From positions 4,974,939 through 5,038,938 of the forward strand of contig OZ242029.1 in the NCBI GenBank assembly GCA_965205015.1: 64,000 nt of DNA, read 5' to 3'. This DNA is from Candidatus Poribacteria bacterium. Lineage in GTDB: Bacteria > Poribacteria > WGA-4E > WGA-3G. The translations under genes and the position numbers were made by a program. The notes under the pieces were generated by a model. It saw nothing but the letters and a program-made list of their open reading frames with translations, ran no database searches and had not been told where the DNA came from. Of this stretch, positions 5,765-53,045 are shown piece by piece (position 1 is the stretch's first letter; the number at the start of each line of letters is the position of its first letter).

Positions 5765-6826
5765 TTACTTCGGTGTACGCCAGATCATGATACCCCCAAC
5801 GGCAGCGTACATGAAGTTCGCGCCCCAACAGGCGAGAAAAGGATGAAGTTTGCCATTTTCACTCAATCCCTCAAGTACTGCAAAGGAGAGTGCCCAATAG
5901 ATAAAAGAGAGGAAGAAAGCGAGTACCAAACCCGCAAAGAAACCAGCCCTACCGAACCGGATAGCGATAGGTGCGCCAAGCATAATAACAACGACAGCTG
6001 CGAATGGGTACGCCGTTTTGTGATACAATTTTACCTGTTCTTTGCGCGAAATCTGTCCTGCTTCCTGTTTATAGGTGATCTGTTGGCGGAGTTCTTCGAT
6101 TGTCATGGCCCTCGGATCCTTTTCACTCCCGATAAAACGGGCGGGATCCTCGTGCCGCTCTATCGCATGCGTATCAAAAGCTTCATAACCGACCTCGACG
6201 CCCCTTTCAAAGTGGCGAATGTATCCATCCGTTAATTGCCAGTGGGTAGGTGTCCACACCGCTGTCTTCGCGAACGTTACGCGAGCGAGTTTCCCATCTG
6301 TATCATATTCATAGATAGTGAGTTGTTGGATTCTACGCGCGTCCAAAGCAATCCGCTGTGAGTAAAAGATACGGTCGCCTTTGCCTTTGAAGACGATGTT
6401 CCTGCCCCGACGCGGTCTAACGTTATTTTGTAAGAGATGCGCTTCATGAAAAGCAGGCGACGCAACCCGGTTATAAAAAATAGCGAAGAGTCCACAAATA
6501 ACGAGCGTTACCATCAAAACAGGCGCGAGGAGCCGGTAAACACTCAGACCGCCCGCCTTCATCGCGGTGAACTCGTTGCTCTGGACCATCCGACCCAGCA
6601 CAAAAAAGATGGCGACAAATGCAGCAACGGGCACTACCTCCATAATCCGACGCGGCGCTTGGAAGAGAACAATTTTAACAGCCGTCATATAAGCGACATC
6701 ATCATCAAACTTCTTGATGTCCTTATCCAGCAAACGCACGATAATAATCAGTGCGATAAAGAACAAAAGCCCGACAAAAAAGGCTTTCAGGTATTCGCGA
6801 AGCAGGTATCGATCTAAAATATTCAA
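5765..6826 (-). CDS. lptG: LPS export permease, LptF/LptG (YjgP/YjgQ) family, LptG-like
   Basis: MNILDRYLLREYLKAFFVGLLFF N-terminus typical of LptG; downstream member of tandem pair; TTG start. Confidence 0.8.
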   Translation of the reverse strand: MNILDRYLLREYLKAFFVGLLFFIALIIIVRLLDKDIKKFDDDVAYMTAVKIVLFQAPRRIMEVVPVAAFVAIFFVLGRMVQSNEFTAMKAGGLSVYRLLAPVLMVTLVICGLFAIFYNRVASPAFHEAHLLQNNVRPRRGRNIVFKGKGDRIFYSQRIALDARRIQQLTIYEYDTDGKLARVTFAKTAVWTPTHWQLTDGYIRHFERGVEVGYEAFDTHAIERHEDPARFIGSEKDPRAMTIEELRQQITYKQEAGQISRKEQVKLYHKTAYPFAAVVVIMLGAPIAIRFGRAGFFAGLVLAFFLSFIYWALSFAVLEGLSENGKLHPFLACWGANFMYAAVGGIMIWRTPK

Positions 6827-46362: not shown

Positions 46363-47223
46363 CTACATCCCCTTAAGTTTACCCCACGTGGTAGCAAGCT
46401 TGGCTTTCGGAGAAACTGGCAATATTGTAGCCAGTCCCTGTTCCCGAATCATCTCTGTCTCTTCAAAGGTAAGGGCAATACCGTTAAAAAGGGCGGCGTG
46501 CGTAATCGAAACCGCAAAAAAGCCACCGGGGAGTTTATTACACTCTAACAGACACCCCATGAGCAGCGGATACGCCTCTTGTGTCAAGTCATTTCCCTTG
46601 ATAACCTTCACAGCAACTTCCTCGCCGTCCCTGTAGATAAAGGAGTCGGCATCGCGTGTGACGACTGCAGCGACAAACTGCCACGTGTTAACCTCCATCG
46701 TTCCTGCGGGACTGATAATACTTCCGTTATCTGAGCCGTTTGCTGAGGTCTCCAAGCGGATCGCGCCAGGACCCGTGTCACCGATATCGAGAATCCAGCC
46801 GCCATTCCAGCACCACGCGCCTTTGGAGATGATACCTTTTCCATCGCCAGGTAAAGCCGGATTCAACCATGCCACTAAGGTAAAATCGTTCTCTCCAACG
46901 TTGACGGTATCACTGTGCGGAATCTCAAGATAGTCGTCCTTACCATCAAATTTGAGGGCTGGACCGAGATCACTATCTACCCATTCTGGGTCCCCTTCGA
47001 TTGTTCCATCATTGCCGTTCCCCGAGTGATCTTTTACCGTGTTGCCTTTCCCTTCATCAAAAAGCCACGCGCCTGCCAAAGTGCCTAAATCTATTTCAGC
47101 ATAACCCATCGTCCCTGAGGCAAGTAGCATCCCTACAAGAATCACGTATAGCCAATTCACATTAACTTTCATTTTTCCTCTCCTTTTGAAAGCCGTGTAA
47201 TCGTAAACCCGTTCCACACCCAA
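46363..47223 (-). CDS. secreted LamG domain protein
   Basis: LAGAWLFDEGKGNTVKDHSGNGNDGTIEGDPEWV...LKFDGKDDYLEIPHSD classic LamG; C-terminal KLATTWGKLK. Confidence 0.7.
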   Translation of the reverse strand: MGVERVYDYTAFKRRGKMKVNVNWLYVILVGMLLASGTMGYAEIDLGTLAGAWLFDEGKGNTVKDHSGNGNDGTIEGDPEWVDSDLGPALKFDGKDDYLEIPHSDTVNVGENDFTLVAWLNPALPGDGKGIISKGAWCWNGGWILDIGDTGPGAIRLETSANGSDNGSIISPAGTMEVNTWQFVAAVVTRDADSFIYRDGEEVAVKVIKGNDLTQEAYPLLMGCLLECNKLPGGFFAVSITHAALFNGIALTFEETEMIREQGLATILPVSPKAKLATTWGKLKGM

Positions 47224-49298
47224 CGTTTCTTTCGAGTATAAATCACTTGGGTTAGACGCTCATTCGTGATCGTAACAGTGTATCGCCTTTCCGCAAATTC
47301 ATCTGCTGAAGTGAGACGTAGTTTCTGGAATTTCTTTTCGCCGTTCGCAATGAGGTTAATATCCACCGGTGCAATAACCCCTGCGTAGAAATAGCACGTA
47401 ATTTCGTAAGTCCCATTCGGGAGCGTGAGCCTGAAAACACCATCCTCTTCACCCCAGAGGCTATCTTGATACAGAAGAAGATTCGGTTCACCGACTGCTA
47501 AAACATCGCGTAGGTCCCGCGCAGCCTTCGGGGCTTCGGTGTGCCAATATTTGAGTTCAAAACCACCGCCGCCGGTTTTAAATTCATCCTGAACAGATTT
47601 CGATATCCAACCGTACCGCCCATCTGTGTAATCCGTGTCCGTGTATATAGGAATCCGCCCCAGGGCAGTCTCTCCATCGCGCGGTTGCATGTCGAAGGTC
47701 ATCTCAGTCGTATCCTCCCATAATTGCGAGTCCGGTGCGACGCGCTTGCGCCGATACAGCCGATTAAAGTTGGTTGCATGGATCACCTCATAATCTTGGG
47801 TAAGATCTTCAACGTTATCATACTCTGTGCGCCAGACGAGCACATAGTCCGGTGGCACTTTCTTGTTTTTGTAGCGGAGCGGGAAGTGATCTGTGTTCGG
47901 TTCATAGTTCTGAAGATAGGCAACATCGTTCTCCAACGCCAGATACCCCTCTATATGCTCAAACGGGAGAATGTATTTGAAATCCCATTTCGCCGAATCG
48001 GGCGTACCCCCCCACGAACTCGGACGACTCGCAAGGACCGTGTGCGGTTCTATCATCTCTGCCGATGAAAGTGCCTCTTGGGCATCTCTGTCCAGCAGAT
48101 AGTAAGTTTGAACGTGATAACCGAGATGCCATAACGCTAAAACAATCAGGATACCGCTGAAGGCATAGTCAACGAATCGATGAAGACTGAAACTGAAGAA
48201 TGGCAGTAGGGCGAGTAGAATGTAGATATGTATCCGATCACTGATCCACATACCCCCAGAACGCAAACTCCACGGGGATTTGAAATAGAGGAACGTTAAT
48301 ATCAGCGCAATCAGCAAAAAAACGTCTGTTCGAGCGAGAATTGCGGCAGCACCTCTGGAACTTCCGTTTTCCGATGTCGACGCGGCACGGTGGGCATAAA
48401 TTTTACCGATCCTGTCGATGACAGTCAGCAGAAAAGCGATTCCAAGCACAGCAAGGAGAAGGTTGCCTATCAGAACATGGTCATCCCGAAAGGAGACAAT
48501 GGAACCGATGGAGAGAAAGTACTTTATTAATCCTTCAAAACTTCTATGGAAACCCCCTCCCTCTCGTTTCACCAGATAGTAGGACAGTAGGATTACATAG
48601 GCGGGGAGCATGGAACCCAAAAAGAGTAAGATAGATTTTAATTGTGCGACTAACCGCACACGCGGAGATTCTAACACCTCATAAACATAACGGAAAACAC
48701 CGAGAACCGTTAGAGATACTGTCAGCAGCGCGTAGGATTGAAAGTGCGTGAGATAGACGACCGTGAGCCACACGTAAACCGTGACAAACGCCCTTGGACT
48801 GAGTTTATTCTCACATCGCCACCAACAACCGATCGCGAAAAAAAAGAGTGAGACACTTAAGGCGAAGTTATAGAATCCCATGTGCAGCAAATAGTTATAG
48901 GCAAAAATGAAACCGACGAGGCAGAAAAGTGTCTTGCTTTTTTGAATACCGTTGAGGAGATAGAGGAGAGAAAGGGGGAGAAGTCCTATGCAGAGACTAA
49001 AGAATATCTTTTCGCAGACAAGCGGGGGAAAGATATACATGAGCGCTGCCATGAAGGCATGGGACGTCCAATTCGGAAAAAGCGTCGGGTTGCGTTCGTG
49101 AACTTCCCGGAGTATATAGTTTTCGTGATTGTGATATACCTTTAAAATGTGTGCGTTGTGGACATGCGCGGGTCCGTCTTGGGTCCCGGTATACTTGAAC
49201 AGCCAAGTCGGCAAAACATGTATCACCAAAAGTACAATCACGATACTGTGCTGGATAGAGAATCGACGCACTTTCATAGTTGCCTCGCTCTTGAACAA
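47169..49298 (-). CDS. large polytopic membrane protein with C-terminal soluble domain, hypothetical
   Basis: ~12 TM helices followed by ~300-aa hydrophilic domain; probably co-transcribed with downstream LamG gene. Confidence 0.55.
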   Translation of the reverse strand: MFKSEATMKVRRFSIQHSIVIVLLVIHVLPTWLFKYTGTQDGPAHVHNAHILKVYHNHENYILREVHERNPTLFPNWTSHAFMAALMYIFPPLVCEKIFFSLCIGLLPLSLLYLLNGIQKSKTLFCLVGFIFAYNYLLHMGFYNFALSVSLFFFAIGCWWRCENKLSPRAFVTVYVWLTVVYLTHFQSYALLTVSLTVLGVFRYVYEVLESPRVRLVAQLKSILLFLGSMLPAYVILLSYYLVKREGGGFHRSFEGLIKYFLSIGSIVSFRDDHVLIGNLLLAVLGIAFLLTVIDRIGKIYAHRAASTSENGSSRGAAAILARTDVFLLIALILTFLYFKSPWSLRSGGMWISDRIHIYILLALLPFFSFSLHRFVDYAFSGILIVLALWHLGYHVQTYYLLDRDAQEALSSAEMIEPHTVLASRPSSWGGTPDSAKWDFKYILPFEHIEGYLALENDVAYLQNYEPNTDHFPLRYKNKKVPPDYVLVWRTEYDNVEDLTQDYEVIHATNFNRLYRRKRVAPDSQLWEDTTEMTFDMQPRDGETALGRIPIYTDTDYTDGRYGWISKSVQDEFKTGGGGFELKYWHTEAPKAARDLRDVLAVGEPNLLLYQDSLWGEEDGVFRLTLPNGTYEITCYFYAGVIAPVDINLIANGEKKFQKLRLTSADEFAERRYTVTITNERLTQVIYTRKKRWVWNGFTITRLSKGEEK

Positions 49299-49420
49299 CC
49301 GTCTTTCGCACGAATAGAATCGGATGTTGCTATTCTACAAGAACTTTGCCGCAAGGTCAACAAAAACTGTGGATAAGGCGAGGTTAGATGAAGATTAATT
49401 TTTTAATTCGGTAATATGCG

Positions 49421-49492
49421 GGCAGGCACAAGCCCTGGGGAAACACCCAAGCAAAAACCCCCTACAATGTCTTTTTTGGGATAGGATTACCG
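49421..49492. repeat. dispersed intergenic element GGCAGGCACAAGCCCTGGGG[aaacacccaagcaaaaa]CCCCCTACAATG...
   Basis: Member of the GGCAGGTACAAGACCT family; preceded by GGCGAGGTTAG half-hairpin and a TTTTTTAATT motif fragment. Confidence 0.55.
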
Positions 49493-49597
49493 AAATATTT
49501 ATTTAAATTTCATTCAACCGCGCCAACGGGGAATGTAAGCATCGGGAATCGGAGTTCCCTCCTACAGAAAAGCTAAATGCTCTATGTGGATAAAGCA

Positions 49598-50443
49598 CTA
49601 AAAAGGTGAGTCTTGGGCTTGTGTATTTTCTGCTTGCGCGTCACTCGAAGCTGCAGTCTCTTGATTCGCGGATTCCTCAGATTCAGGGACTTCGCTCTCC
49701 TGTGCAGCCGTTGTTAATTGCTTTACACGCTCGCAGAGTTCATCTAACAACTGTGGTGAGGTTTCCGCCGCTTTCAGTTCCGCAGAAAGCTGCGTCCACT
49801 GCATCTCGGTCATATCGTTCCGAGATTCCACACCATATTTACGTTTGATGTAATTCCAGAGATCCGCCTTATCGACACCTTTTCCTTCAAGAGGTCCCGC
49901 CAGATTGTTCGCGATAGCAAAAGCCGCTTTTTGGGCGTTAGCGATATTTCCAGCGCCCTGCTGTAACCGCGGTTGTTGCGCCGTATTACCACTCCCCGCT
50001 TTTCGGTTCAGGTAGAAATTCAGGACCTCGCGGATGACCGGCACGGGGATCAACTGTTTAATTGCGTTACGCTGCGCTTTATGAATCGCTTTGGTGAAGG
50101 CGAACGGATCGGCGCGTCCGCCAGCCATCTTCAGTTGCTCATAAGCACCGTAACGAGAGGAACCGGTGATTGTATCGACGGCTTTCGCAGTCGCAATCCA
50201 AGAATGCTCGCGCTCCTCATAATCAATTTCTTCGATCTGGATACCGCCCCGGCGATTTGCGGCTTCGTTAATACCGGCTAAAGTCAACCCTTCAACAGTA
50301 CGTCCGCCCTGTTTGAAGGAGTAGACATAATCCTGAATCGTCTGTCCAGTCATCAACTCAATGATGGCCTGGTCATCCACCTGATCGACAACTTCATATT
50401 CTGCGGTAACTGGTACCATTTCGTTCTTTTTTTCTTCAGCCAT
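49598..50443 (-). CDS. putative Rad52/Sak/DdrA-like single-strand annealing protein with acidic C-terminal tail
   Basis: [27 protein letters not shown] ~ RAD52 [39 protein letters not shown] ~ [26 protein letters not shown] ~ KEAVTDGLKRALRSF; Q/E-rich tail ending DSPF. Confidence 0.4.
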   Translation of the reverse strand: [281 protein letters not shown]

Positions 50444-50515
50444 GATATCCTCCGATTTCTAAATATATAATTAGTATAACATATCTTTAGATATATATCA
50501 AAAAAAAATGCTATT

Positions 50516-51328
50516 TCATTCATCGTCGGCAATGCCCGTCGTAATTTCGATCTGTACTCCATCTGTTACAATGCTTTCAACGTAGAGCGTGAATGTATAC
50601 ATCTGATGGTTCTCGTATTTTTGAAGTTTGGAAGGAAAGAGACCTTCCCCTGCAACATCATCTATAATCCAAAATGTCACATTTCTATTGTTTGTGTCAA
50701 GTGTCATCGCGCCTGAATAATTTTTTACCCATTCCGGGTCTACATCATCTCCAATGCCCAGCAGTTCATTTAGTCTTTTAAGTGAAACCGTCTCATTTTG
50801 AAGACGCACTGTTTTTCCGACATACCTCTGACCCCCAGCGACAATCTGCTCAAGCGTCGTGTCGAGCACCTCAATATCCGCTTTCGCGGTGTGTTCAGGG
50901 ACATCAGCCCAGATAGTGAAGAAACGCTCGCCATCTGCGGCTGTGTCTCCGGAAATGTCTTTTATTAGAAGTGTAAAAGTGTAAGTGGTATGCCCCCGAA
51001 TATGTCGTAGACCACTCTCCATGTAATTTAAATAATAGTGGCGCACAAACTGCGGGTCAGAGTCGGTGATGAAAAAACGGACTGTCTTGTGATGCGTAAA
51101 CAATTCTAACCTTGGTGGGTCCCCATCAGCACTCGGATAAATTCTGCCAGCAGCGGTAATCGTAACCTTCCGTCCCTTGTACTTTGAGTTGATGCCATTT
51201 ACTTCAACATCGTTGATAATATCGGTGAGGGTGCCAAGTTTGACGCTGGGGGATATCCGATGAAATTTTGCACATCCTCCAAAGATAGTAATGGCAAAAC
51301 ATGCACATAAAGATGTAAAAAGTTTCAT
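50516..51328 (-). CDS. hypothetical lipoprotein
   Basis: FAITIFGGC lipobox-type signal peptide; no recognisable domain. Confidence 0.5.
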   Translation of the reverse strand: MKLFTSLCACFAITIFGGCAKFHRISPSVKLGTLTDIINDVEVNGINSKYKGRKVTITAAGRIYPSADGDPPRLELFTHHKTVRFFITDSDPQFVRHYYLNYMESGLRHIRGHTTYTFTLLIKDISGDTAADGERFFTIWADVPEHTAKADIEVLDTTLEQIVAGGQRYVGKTVRLQNETVSLKRLNELLGIGDDVDPEWVKNYSGAMTLDTNNRNVTFWIIDDVAGEGLFPSKLQKYENHQMYTFTLYVESIVTDGVQIEITTGIADDE

Positions 51329-51680: not shown

Positions 51681-53045
51681 GTCACTTACCCCCATTTTTT
51701 TTCGAGAGTAGATTGTAGTTGATGTAGTCAGGTTTTTCTGTGAGAAAGTCAGTCAGTGAGTGGGTCCGAAAAGTGGATCCCCTCTGGCACCTATCTCGGT
51801 GAAAAAGGAGATAAGAAAGTGTTGGTTCCATAAGTCGGTGAGCACGCGTTTGATAATAGTAATAACAGAAAAAGTTTTTCTGTTATTACTATTATATGCC
51901 CTCTGCCAATGCGTAGAGGCGACCTTCTCGTAACTGATAAACAGCAATCCATAAGCGAGGCAGGCACATAACCAAAGGACCTCCAGACGCGCTTGTGTCG
52001 GTTTTTTCAAGACGAGTTTACCAAATCCGAAGCACGACTTTATATCTCGAAACCCGTGTTCAATCTGCATGCGGCGTTTGTAGCAGTGATGTATCTGATG
52101 TCCACTGAGGCGATTGGAGATAAGATACATCGGGTCTTTGAAGGTCTCATCTCTGAGGATATAGAGTTGAAGCGGTATCTGCTCCTGCGCCTGATAAAGG
52201 ATATGCCGATACCAGCCCGCTTCGAGGTCATCAAGTTTCTTCAGACTCCCATCATGCCGGATACCGACATTTCTCGCAACACGCATCACGAACGGGATAT
52301 CCCGTGCCTTGAGAAACTTGATGACGTATCGCGCACGCCCAAAACCACGGTCAAACACCAGAACAGGTCGTTGTTGATGCCGCGACACCACCCCTAAAGC
52401 CTCTTGATAAACATGGACACAGAAGTATTGGATAATCTCATTATGACTCTTATAGATACCCTCGTGAAGCTGGTGATCGCTATAGATGAACCAAAAGACA
52501 GGGATCGCACGATGCCGAAACGGGATCGAAACAACAAGGGCTTTCCACCCGGCAATCAGAGACGTCTCATCAACGAGCAAATACAGATGAGCACCCGCAT
52601 CCTTGAAAAACCAACCCACAACCGACACGAACCACGCTTCTTTGAGCGCATCAATCGGCAGTGGGGTGTCAAGGAAACGCAGAAACCTTTTCTGTTTCGA
52701 CTTCTCCCGCTTGACGACGAGCGACAAACGCGACGCAACTTCATTGATCCGAAACGTCGGGGCAACACTGATCGCTATCAAGACCAATACCAGATTCCGA
52801 AAAACCGGTTTTTTCATACCAACAGACTTGAAGATTTCTCCAAAACGTGTTATCATCGTTTCTGGATTTACCCGTTTTGGGTATCTCTTTTTCATAAAAT
52901 ACCTCCTTACATGTTTTGTAAAATGCGTTTACAAACAGTTGCTGTAAGGAGGTATTTTATCATAAACCCACTGAGTTTCTCACACTTTTTACAACTAAAA
53001 CCTTTCACCACAAACCTTCAGAAAAAAATGGGGGTAAGTGACCTT
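51681..53045 (-). mobile_element. IS4-family insertion sequence (1365 bp)
   Basis: Terminal inverted repeats GTCACTTACCCCCATTTTTTT (51681-51701, 53025-53045) and perfect 9-bp direct repeat CTTCCATTT on both flanks. Confidence 0.8.
51753..52895 (-). CDS. IS4-family DDE transposase
   Basis: LVFDRGF (D), YKRRMQIEHGFRDIKSCFG (YREK signature with catalytic E). Confidence 0.85.
   Translation of the reverse strand: MKKRYPKRVNPETMITRFGEIFKSVGMKKPVFRNLVLVLIAISVAPTFRINEVASRLSLVVKREKSKQKRFLRFLDTPLPIDALKEAWFVSVVGWFFKDAGAHLYLLVDETSLIAGWKALVVSIPFRHRAIPVFWFIYSDHQLHEGIYKSHNEIIQYFCVHVYQEALGVVSRHQQRPVLVFDRGFGRARYVIKFLKARDIPFVMRVARNVGIRHDGSLKKLDDLEAGWYRHILYQAQEQIPLQLYILRDETFKDPMYLISNRLSGHQIHHCYKRRMQIEHGFRDIKSCFGFGKLVLKKPTQARLEVLWLCACLAYGLLFISYEKVASTHWQRAYNSNNRKTFSVITIIKRVLTDLWNQHFLISFFTEIGARGDPLFGPTH

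Follow-up and report, generated by a model that had tools for sequence, protein, structure and literature searches.

The stretch analysed here (the window) comprises 64,000 nt of a Candidatus Poribacteria genome (assembly GCA_965205015.1, contig OZ242029.1, positions 4,974,939–5,038,938). On its minus strand, at 49598–50443, it encodes a 281-aa protein that is best read as a phage-derived annealing protein of the Rad52 superfamily, belonging to a family without a curated model, domesticated in Poribacteria and carrying a tail that resembles the C-terminus of SSB, which binds single-stranded DNA. The original prediction, made from the DNA letters and translated reading frames, had proposed a Rad52/Sak/DdrA-like annealing protein with an SSB-like tail, either a domesticated phage single-strand annealing protein (SSAP) or a DdrA-like repair factor. 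The open reading frame (ORF) is real, with an ATG start and a Shine-Dalgarno sequence of its own. A domesticated phage SSAP was the best reading, because the gene is chromosomal and outside any prophage, and its nearest relatives outside Poribacteria are phage-borne.

An AlphaFold2 model was built with an alignment of 50 diverse homologues (A1). The mean predicted local distance difference test (pLDDT) score was 83.8, with 93–98 over residues 41–140 and 171–250; a model from the single sequence (pLDDT 47) was of no use. In the predicted N-terminal domain (N-domain), a helix (16–32), a β-hairpin (40–45/48–53) and a second helix (55–65) were followed by three strands (68–77, 81–90 and 96–104), a crossing helix (115–129) and a last helix (134–152). 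The Rad52 superfamily is defined by an N-terminal domain of ~180 aa with a β-hairpin and a three-stranded β-sheet crossed by an α-helix (PMC11783212), and the predicted N-domain displayed this motif. Comparison with known structures matched it to human RAD52 (8tkq_A, Z 7.2, 107 residues at 5.1 Å; 5jrb_A, Z 6.9, 102 residues at 3.8 Å), yeast Rad52 (8g3g_J, Z 6.3, 73 residues at 2.4 Å), 80α Sak (8qe9_1A, Z 5.9, 68 residues at 3.4 Å), Mgm101 (9yi6_A, Z 5.9, 88 residues at 5.4 Å) and the N-terminal domain of Redβ (7ujl_A, Z 5.7, 107 residues at 6.6 Å). Foldseek against the whole PDB also placed the Redβ N-terminal domain at the top (E 3.3e-3, probability 1.00), and RecT was listed too. Against BFVD, Foldseek gave 38 matches at E ≤ 1e-3; among the 37 listed, 11 were named, and all 11 were annealing or recombination proteins (Rad52, Rad52/59/22, RecT, ERF, SAK3, “DNA single-strand annealing protein” and “DNA repair protein”). 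The absolute scores were moderate; the argument lies in the convergence of the matches on five different SSAP families. The Rad52-type fold that had been proposed was thus borne out by a confident N-domain model and its matches to RAD52, Sak, Mgm101 and Redβ; as modelled, the N-domain very probably adopts the annealing fold of this superfamily. The protein is further predicted, with fair probability, to bind or anneal single-stranded DNA (ssDNA) in recombination or repair.

Homologues at 60–93% identity numbered more than 500; all of the named ones came from Candidatus Poribacteria, many on contigs of 4–7 Mb. HMMER, run exhaustively over 1.84 billion cluster representatives (50% identity), found at least 915 relatives at E ≤ 1e-3, most of which share only residues ~12–155 with the window protein and most of which carry no annotation. 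In A1 only Y41 and R125 were strictly invariant. K118, A119, K122, A123, N126 and A127 were near-invariant there and, together with G99, invariant in a set of viral members (A2). Among library families, phrog_3657 of PHROGs (function unknown) alone resembled the N-domain at the level of sequence: 19 of the 50 relatives matched it, with E values down to 7e-13, and the window protein itself reached E 0.034, below significance.

Outside Poribacteria the family is carried mainly by uncultivated phages. Relatives were found on 41 IMG/VR viral contigs. The closest non-Poribacteria homologues, 46–48% identical overall, were found on phage-like contigs that also encode a P22 portal, Sipho_Gp157, an M15 endolysin or TGT/QueC, and the N-domain of one of them (P0126) is 72% identical to that of the window protein. 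A PD-(D/E)XK/Cas4-like nuclease lay no more than three genes away in 17 of 42 viral loci, mostly adjacent, which is the classic exonuclease-plus-annealase module; at a distance of up to four genes, SSB was encoded in six loci and Rad51/RadA in three, the latter suggesting archaeal viruses. Searching 50,697 GenBank phage genomes by tblastn with the window protein and one phage-type relative gave no match, and a profile of the diverse alignment returned Poribacteria sequences only from a set of 5.8 billion proteins. On the two phage-like contigs closest to the Poribacteria gene, a protein of 124–129 aa with a faint PDDEXK_15 signal was encoded two or three genes downstream of the family gene (L045:2625-3014 and L047:9906-10280); it could be a cognate nuclease or resolvase.

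Within Poribacteria the gene behaves as a chromosomal one, with housekeeping genes on its flanks. A scan of GTDB species representatives with the single protein as query found orthologues in at least 47 of them, all Candidatus Poribacteria, at 63–94% identity and many on chromosomes of 4–7 Mb. The window neighbours were a lipoprotein-like ORF, an IS4-type DDE transposase, an ABC-F ATPase, a membrane protein, a LamG protein, TenA and a histidine kinase; no phage genes were found among them, as the original prediction had observed. The ratio of nonsynonymous to synonymous substitution (dN/dS) against orthologues was 0.02 for the N-domain, 0.06 for the C-terminal domain (C-domain), 0.29 for the linker and 0.35 for the tail. 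The gene is under strong purifying selection: it is being maintained and is no prophage remnant in decay. Marine (TARA) contigs carry a homologue of 53% identity (P0122; loci L097 / L098) in a cellular setting. At 324 aa it exceeds the window protein in length, and its C-terminus, …TRGARRQ, has no PF tip; it may belong to a second chromosomal lineage that lacks the tip, or its end may be frameshifted.

The C-terminal half of the protein consists of a linker, the C-domain and a tail. The linker had pLDDT below 50 at residues 156–162 and a column conservation of 0.56. The C-domain has the consensus K..FA....G(I/V)....FW..V....V.SR.DMT..QW..L; its profile gave nothing significant either in hhalign against the Redβ C-terminal domain or in hmmsearch against the PDB. 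The window protein had no match to GemA (PF06252, phage Mu gp16), and only two or three relatives per set matched the GemA hidden Markov model in this domain (E 1.8e-4 to 9e-3). The tail is rich in Q, E, S and T, acidic (median net charge −7 across orthologues), of pLDDT 43–50 and of low conservation (0.43–0.67), and it ends AQDSPF. The SSB-like tip, proposed from the final DSPF, is real and conserved: among Poribacteria orthologues the terminal F was found in 48 of 48 and the penultimate P in 39 of 48, and distant relatives on phage contigs end DIPF, EEIPF, DDIPF, DDDIGF, IPY, EFPF or IPW. Across 136 members, an acidic-plus-aromatic tip was commoner with the C-domain (17/37) than without it (6/99; Fisher p = 3e-7, uncorrected for phylogeny). 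Reading the tip instead as a β-clamp-binding motif (QL[SD]LF) was judged less likely; the tip has D/E at position 2 and P at position 4, and the canonical SSB-type DDIPF occurs in distant relatives.

Eight viral loci also encode an SSB. The IPF tip was on the SSB in five, on the family protein in two, on neither in one and on both in none, in a small sample whose lineages are not independent. In the two loci concerned (L025, SSB ORF 6161-6565; L035, 10727-11137) the family protein ends DDIPF and the SSB, without an IPF tip, ends …HPPEP or …PPEPEE; in L010, L011, L017, L019 and L022 the family protein lacks the tip and the SSB ends ENIPF or EDIPF. A partner-recruiting tip may have been transferred from SSB to the annealase in phage relatives. 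In the Poribacteria protein the tail is tentatively taken as an SSB-tip surrogate that recruits SSB-client enzymes, autoregulates the protein, or does both, a proposal that we hold to be possible and somewhat short of an even chance.

Other ends occur in the family as well. Seven viral members (L010, L011, L015, L017, L019, L022 and L042) end in [CS]-P-[IVLM]-x-x-N-K-K instead of an acidic tip and always lie directly upstream of a gene for a 273-aa Cas4-like nuclease; the motif may be a dedicated nuclease-docking peptide. In a large branch (P0150, P0160, P0170, P0185, P0191, P0208, P0212, P0244, P0250, P0263 and others) the helical C-domain is replaced by other modules, and a conserved G-x-W…W-(E/R) motif stands at the end of many members. 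The archaeal Gins51 C-terminal domain was matched by 2 of the 50 relatives (best E 1.9e-17), and recombinase- or topoisomerase-type zinc ribbons were found in 5 of 39 viral members.

Several results weigh against the assignment to Rad52-superfamily annealing proteins with an SSB-type tail. Searches of Pfam, NCBIfam and PDB sequences linked the window protein to no SSAP family, nothing significant was found in PHROGs or PADLOC either, and a profile of the 50 homologues had no match among PDB sequences. Pfam scans of 50 + 39 relatives, at E ≤ 0.01 and at E ≤ 1, gave no Rad52_Rad22, RecT, ERF, Redβ, DUF1071 or DUF669. The A1 profile aligned by hhalign with human RAD52(1-211), whose sequence was confirmed to be identical to that of 1KN0, at E 0.18 and a probability of 0.3%. 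Against a 14-sequence Sak/DUF1071 alignment the probability was also 0.3%. Both templates were shallow; in the Sak alignment no homologue was less than 63% identical. The Poribacteria tip, [DE][ST]PF, has no Ile and departs from the canonical DDDIPF, and neither a nuclease nor an SSB was found in the neighbourhood of the window gene. An SSB gene was likewise not found in the window or in ~0.5 Mb of Poribacteria loci.

Parts of the original prediction fall with these results. It had quoted three Rad52 consensus blocks, and the quoted strings are absent from the protein; the actual stretches are aa 44–67, 93–103 and 116–133, and the non-significant alignment with RAD52 runs co-linear with them. 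It was to be given up if sensitive profile searches returned no Rad52-superfamily hit and, formally, at the level of sequence, none was returned: Rad52_Rad22-type membership finds no Pfam or NCBIfam match and is negative in hhalign. A DdrA-like factor was not favoured either, with no Rad52_Rad22 match for the window protein or its relatives. Judged by sequence, the protein belongs to no described SSAP family. It is the comparison of folds, and nothing else, that upholds the Rad52-superfamily call.

The same features can be read in other ways. The protein might be an alternative ssDNA-coating protein, an SSB analogue on a Rad52- or dsRBD-like fold, whose tail recruits SSB clients and for which annealing is incidental or absent. 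Its layout is that of SSB, in which a folded core that binds DNA is followed by a disordered, acidic linker and a hydrophobic tip that does not vary, and at the two loci where the co-resident phage SSB is tip-less the family protein has DDIPF. However, a normal tip-bearing SSB coexists with the family protein in five viral loci, an exonuclease is the commonest neighbour of the viral relatives, as it is for annealases, and the named fold matches are all annealases and none of them OB-fold SSBs; we regard a coating role as rather unlikely. S5 N-domains, dsRBDs and the Rad52 pairing domain belong to the same dsRBD-like fold class in SCOP, and the protein could share only this α-β3-α fold class, as a dsRBD/S5-like binder (an RNA or double-stranded-DNA regulator or a replication-organiser module) without a recombination role. 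S5 N-domains and dsRBDs gave Z scores similar to those of the SSAP matches, but over shorter or much looser alignments: 55–85 residues, often with root-mean-square deviations above 9 Å, against 102–118 residues including the hairpin for RAD52 and Redβ. The named BFVD matches among those listed were exclusively SSAPs or recombinases, and the nuclease, SSB and Rad51 neighbourhood of the viral relatives favours recombination; a binder of this kind is improbable.

Read as a decoy or regulator, for example a remnant of phage takeover or anti-defence, the protein would titrate SSB-client proteins or bind SSB itself, with its activity in the tail and the folded domains as a scaffold. Such a role would account for a tip that is invariant while the tail sequence drifts, and it is in keeping with the phage origin of the family and with the resemblance of the C-domain to a domain that binds the SSB C-terminus. 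Yet the N-domain has the lowest dN/dS of all segments, and the basic residues of its crossing helix are invariant or nearly so in phage and cellular members alike, an argument for placing the primary conserved activity in the N-domain. There was also no PADLOC match and no defence or anti-defence context, and we consider a decoy highly improbable.

For the preferred reading, a domesticated phage annealing protein, we infer ssDNA binding, annealing, oligomerisation and the binding partners of the tail, and the following course can be proposed. One phage copy would have entered the Poribacteria chromosome and been retained there as a gene that stands alone and has its own promoter. The N-domain would oligomerise, bind ssDNA on the basic side of the crossing helix (K118, K122, R125 and N126) and pair complementary strands with no need of ATP or RecA. 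The bundle of helices at the C-terminus may be a partner-docking module like the C-terminal domain of Redβ. The acidic tail with its …PF end would plug into the hydrophobic pockets of SSB-client enzymes (nucleases, helicases and restart proteins), and this recruitment would replace the dedicated exonuclease partner that adjoins the phage versions. In addition, by folding back onto the DNA-binding groove or the C-domain of its own protein, the tail may hold the protein in an inactive state that ends when ssDNA binds. In the cell, the protein would probably repair double-strand breaks or gaps by annealing strands, independently of RecA. A bolder and unlikely version makes the protein a self-contained switch of SSB tip and tip receptor. 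The …PF tip would dock in cis or in trans into the Redβ-C-terminal-domain-like domain, trans docking driving filament cooperativity as in ICP8, and ssDNA binding would release the tip to recruit host SSB-client nucleases and helicases. One protein would then be a complete RecA-independent annealing repair pathway for the phylum, and in phage relatives the tip would have moved from SSB to the annealase.

The features of the gene are listed in Table 1. The putative promoter scored 10/12 against consensus, with a TG 5′ of the −10 hexamer, and was the top promoter-like site of the region. It lies in what the original prediction had described as a 39-nt AT-rich palindromic element immediately upstream. 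The string is present (50461–50499); as a palindrome it is only an imperfect inverted repeat, with 14-nt arms that are 86% complementary. Its conserved parts are the hexamers and not the palindrome: in several farther orthologues (~71–82% identical) a TTGACA/TTGATA −35 and a TATACT/TATGCT −10 are kept at unchanged spacing, and the inverted repeat ATATCT-AA-AGATAT between them is lost. An operator or the end of a mobile element was rejected as the main explanation of the palindrome, only the −35 and −10 hexamers persisting in these orthologues. Read from its sequence, the core of the element is a σ70-type promoter with an extended −10. The GGAG of the Shine-Dalgarno sequence was kept in 46 of 46 aligned orthologue upstream regions. 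In the most distant orthologue clade (63–68% identical) the upstream region differs; several members (L087, L090, L091 and L094, 63–66% identity) have two or three tandem ATGAAC(C/T)A repeats ~25–50 nt before the ATG, where the window gene has its TTGATA/TATACT promoter.

Table 1. Features of the SSAP-like gene and of its product (window coordinates)
Feature	Position	Strand	Basis and remarks
SSAP-like protein, coding sequence	49598..50443	−	ORF list; 281 aa + stop, ATG start
N-terminal domain, putative ssDNA-binding/annealing	49988..50410	−	aa 12-152, predicted structure
Linker, variable, low confidence	49949..49987	−	aa 153-165
C-terminal helical domain, putative partner-binding	49694..49948	−	aa 166-250, four helices
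Disordered acidic tail, ~32 aa	49601..49693	−	aa 251-281; S-P-F tip at 49601-49609
Putative σ70-type promoter, TTGATA–17 nt–TG-T-TATACT (extended −10)	50473..50501	−	consensus scan
Shine-Dalgarno sequence, GGAGGA	50448..50453	−	read from sequence; 4 nt 5′ of ATG
Terminator-like element, 10-bp hairpin then CUUUUCU	49566..49599	−	RNA fold of 49370-49600(−)

At the 3′ end, the hairpin begins one base past the first base of the stop codon. It was not flagged by a strict terminator scan, and together with the CUUUUCU run it may serve as a terminator-like element. The RNA fold of 49370–49600(−) had a z-score of −2.8. The 300-nt intergenic region 3′ of the gene also holds an imperfect inverted repeat (49377–49415 / 49486–49524), with 39-nt arms that are 74% complementary and lie 70 nt apart; Rfam gave no RNA element around the gene, this region included. 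The gene looks monocistronic.

An 88%-identical orthologue (locus L002) has the order ABC-F, gene, 295-aa ORF, TenA, histidine kinase, DHDPS and EPSP synthase, and the window keeps this order, interrupted by extra genes. The IS4-type DDE transposase ORF (51753–52895, minus strand; PF01609, E 2.6e-15), between the ABC-F and SSAP-like genes, is absent from L002. So are three further ORFs (window 46363–49298 and 50516–51328, minus strand), which encode a 286-aa LamG/ConA-like protein, a 709-aa multi-pass membrane protein and a 270-aa lipoprotein-like protein, the latter two without a Pfam match. The surroundings of the gene look like a hotspot for insertions. A 66%-identical orthologue lies in another context, still cellular.

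An orphan SSAP family is in itself unsurprising, given the thousands of SSAP-like proteins without annotation that structure screens had brought to light before (PMC11783212). What is unusual is its fixation in the chromosome across a phylum under very strong constraint, and an SSB-type tip on the annealase itself, whereas known annealases (Redβ and RecT, for example) attach to the SSB tip. No description of an SSB-type tip on an annealase was found in a literature search of incomplete coverage. If the reading as a domesticated phage annealing protein is true, the family would be a sixth, sequence-orphan one in the Rad52 annealase superfamily, beside Rad52_Rad22, Redβ, RecT, ERF and Sak3, and it would clearly exemplify a phage annealase that has become a core gene of the chromosome throughout a phylum of sponge symbionts. 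The tip on the annealase would invert the known arrangement and would bear on the host restriction of recombineering proteins: an annealase with its own SSB-type tip might need less matching to the host SSB and so be more portable. The association of tip with C-domain, and a tip on SSB or on the annealase and never on both, are concrete hypotheses that can be tested cheaply.

DdrA of Deinococcus is a member of the Rad52_Rad22 family. Compared with it and with Rad52/Sak (Rad52_Rad22, DUF1071), the Poribacteria protein has no sequence-profile membership, a different C-terminal domain and an SSB-like tail. Relatives share N-domain similarity with phrog_3657, itself unannotated. T7 gp2.5, T4 gp32, HSV ICP8 and Hfq, which bind or anneal nucleic acids, have acidic or aromatic C-terminal ends that regulate their own binding and recruit partners; their folds are unrelated (OB-like or Sm), and the likeness is one of analogy only. 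To λ Redβ no sequence similarity of the family was detected. The partner nucleases of the phage relatives are PD-(D/E)XK/Cas4-like and not a named λ Exo orthologue, and the window gene has no nearby nuclease. The C-terminal domain of Redβ binds the SSB tip (PMC6393309), whereas the Poribacteria protein itself bears such a tip. Unlike SSB (PF00436), it has a core that is α/β and Rad52-like in the model and not an OB fold, without a Pfam SSB match; like the bacterial SSB tail (…DDDIPF), its C-terminus joins a disordered acidic stretch to a conserved hydrophobic tip, P-F in Poribacteria and DDIPF, EEIPF or DIPF in the phage relatives.
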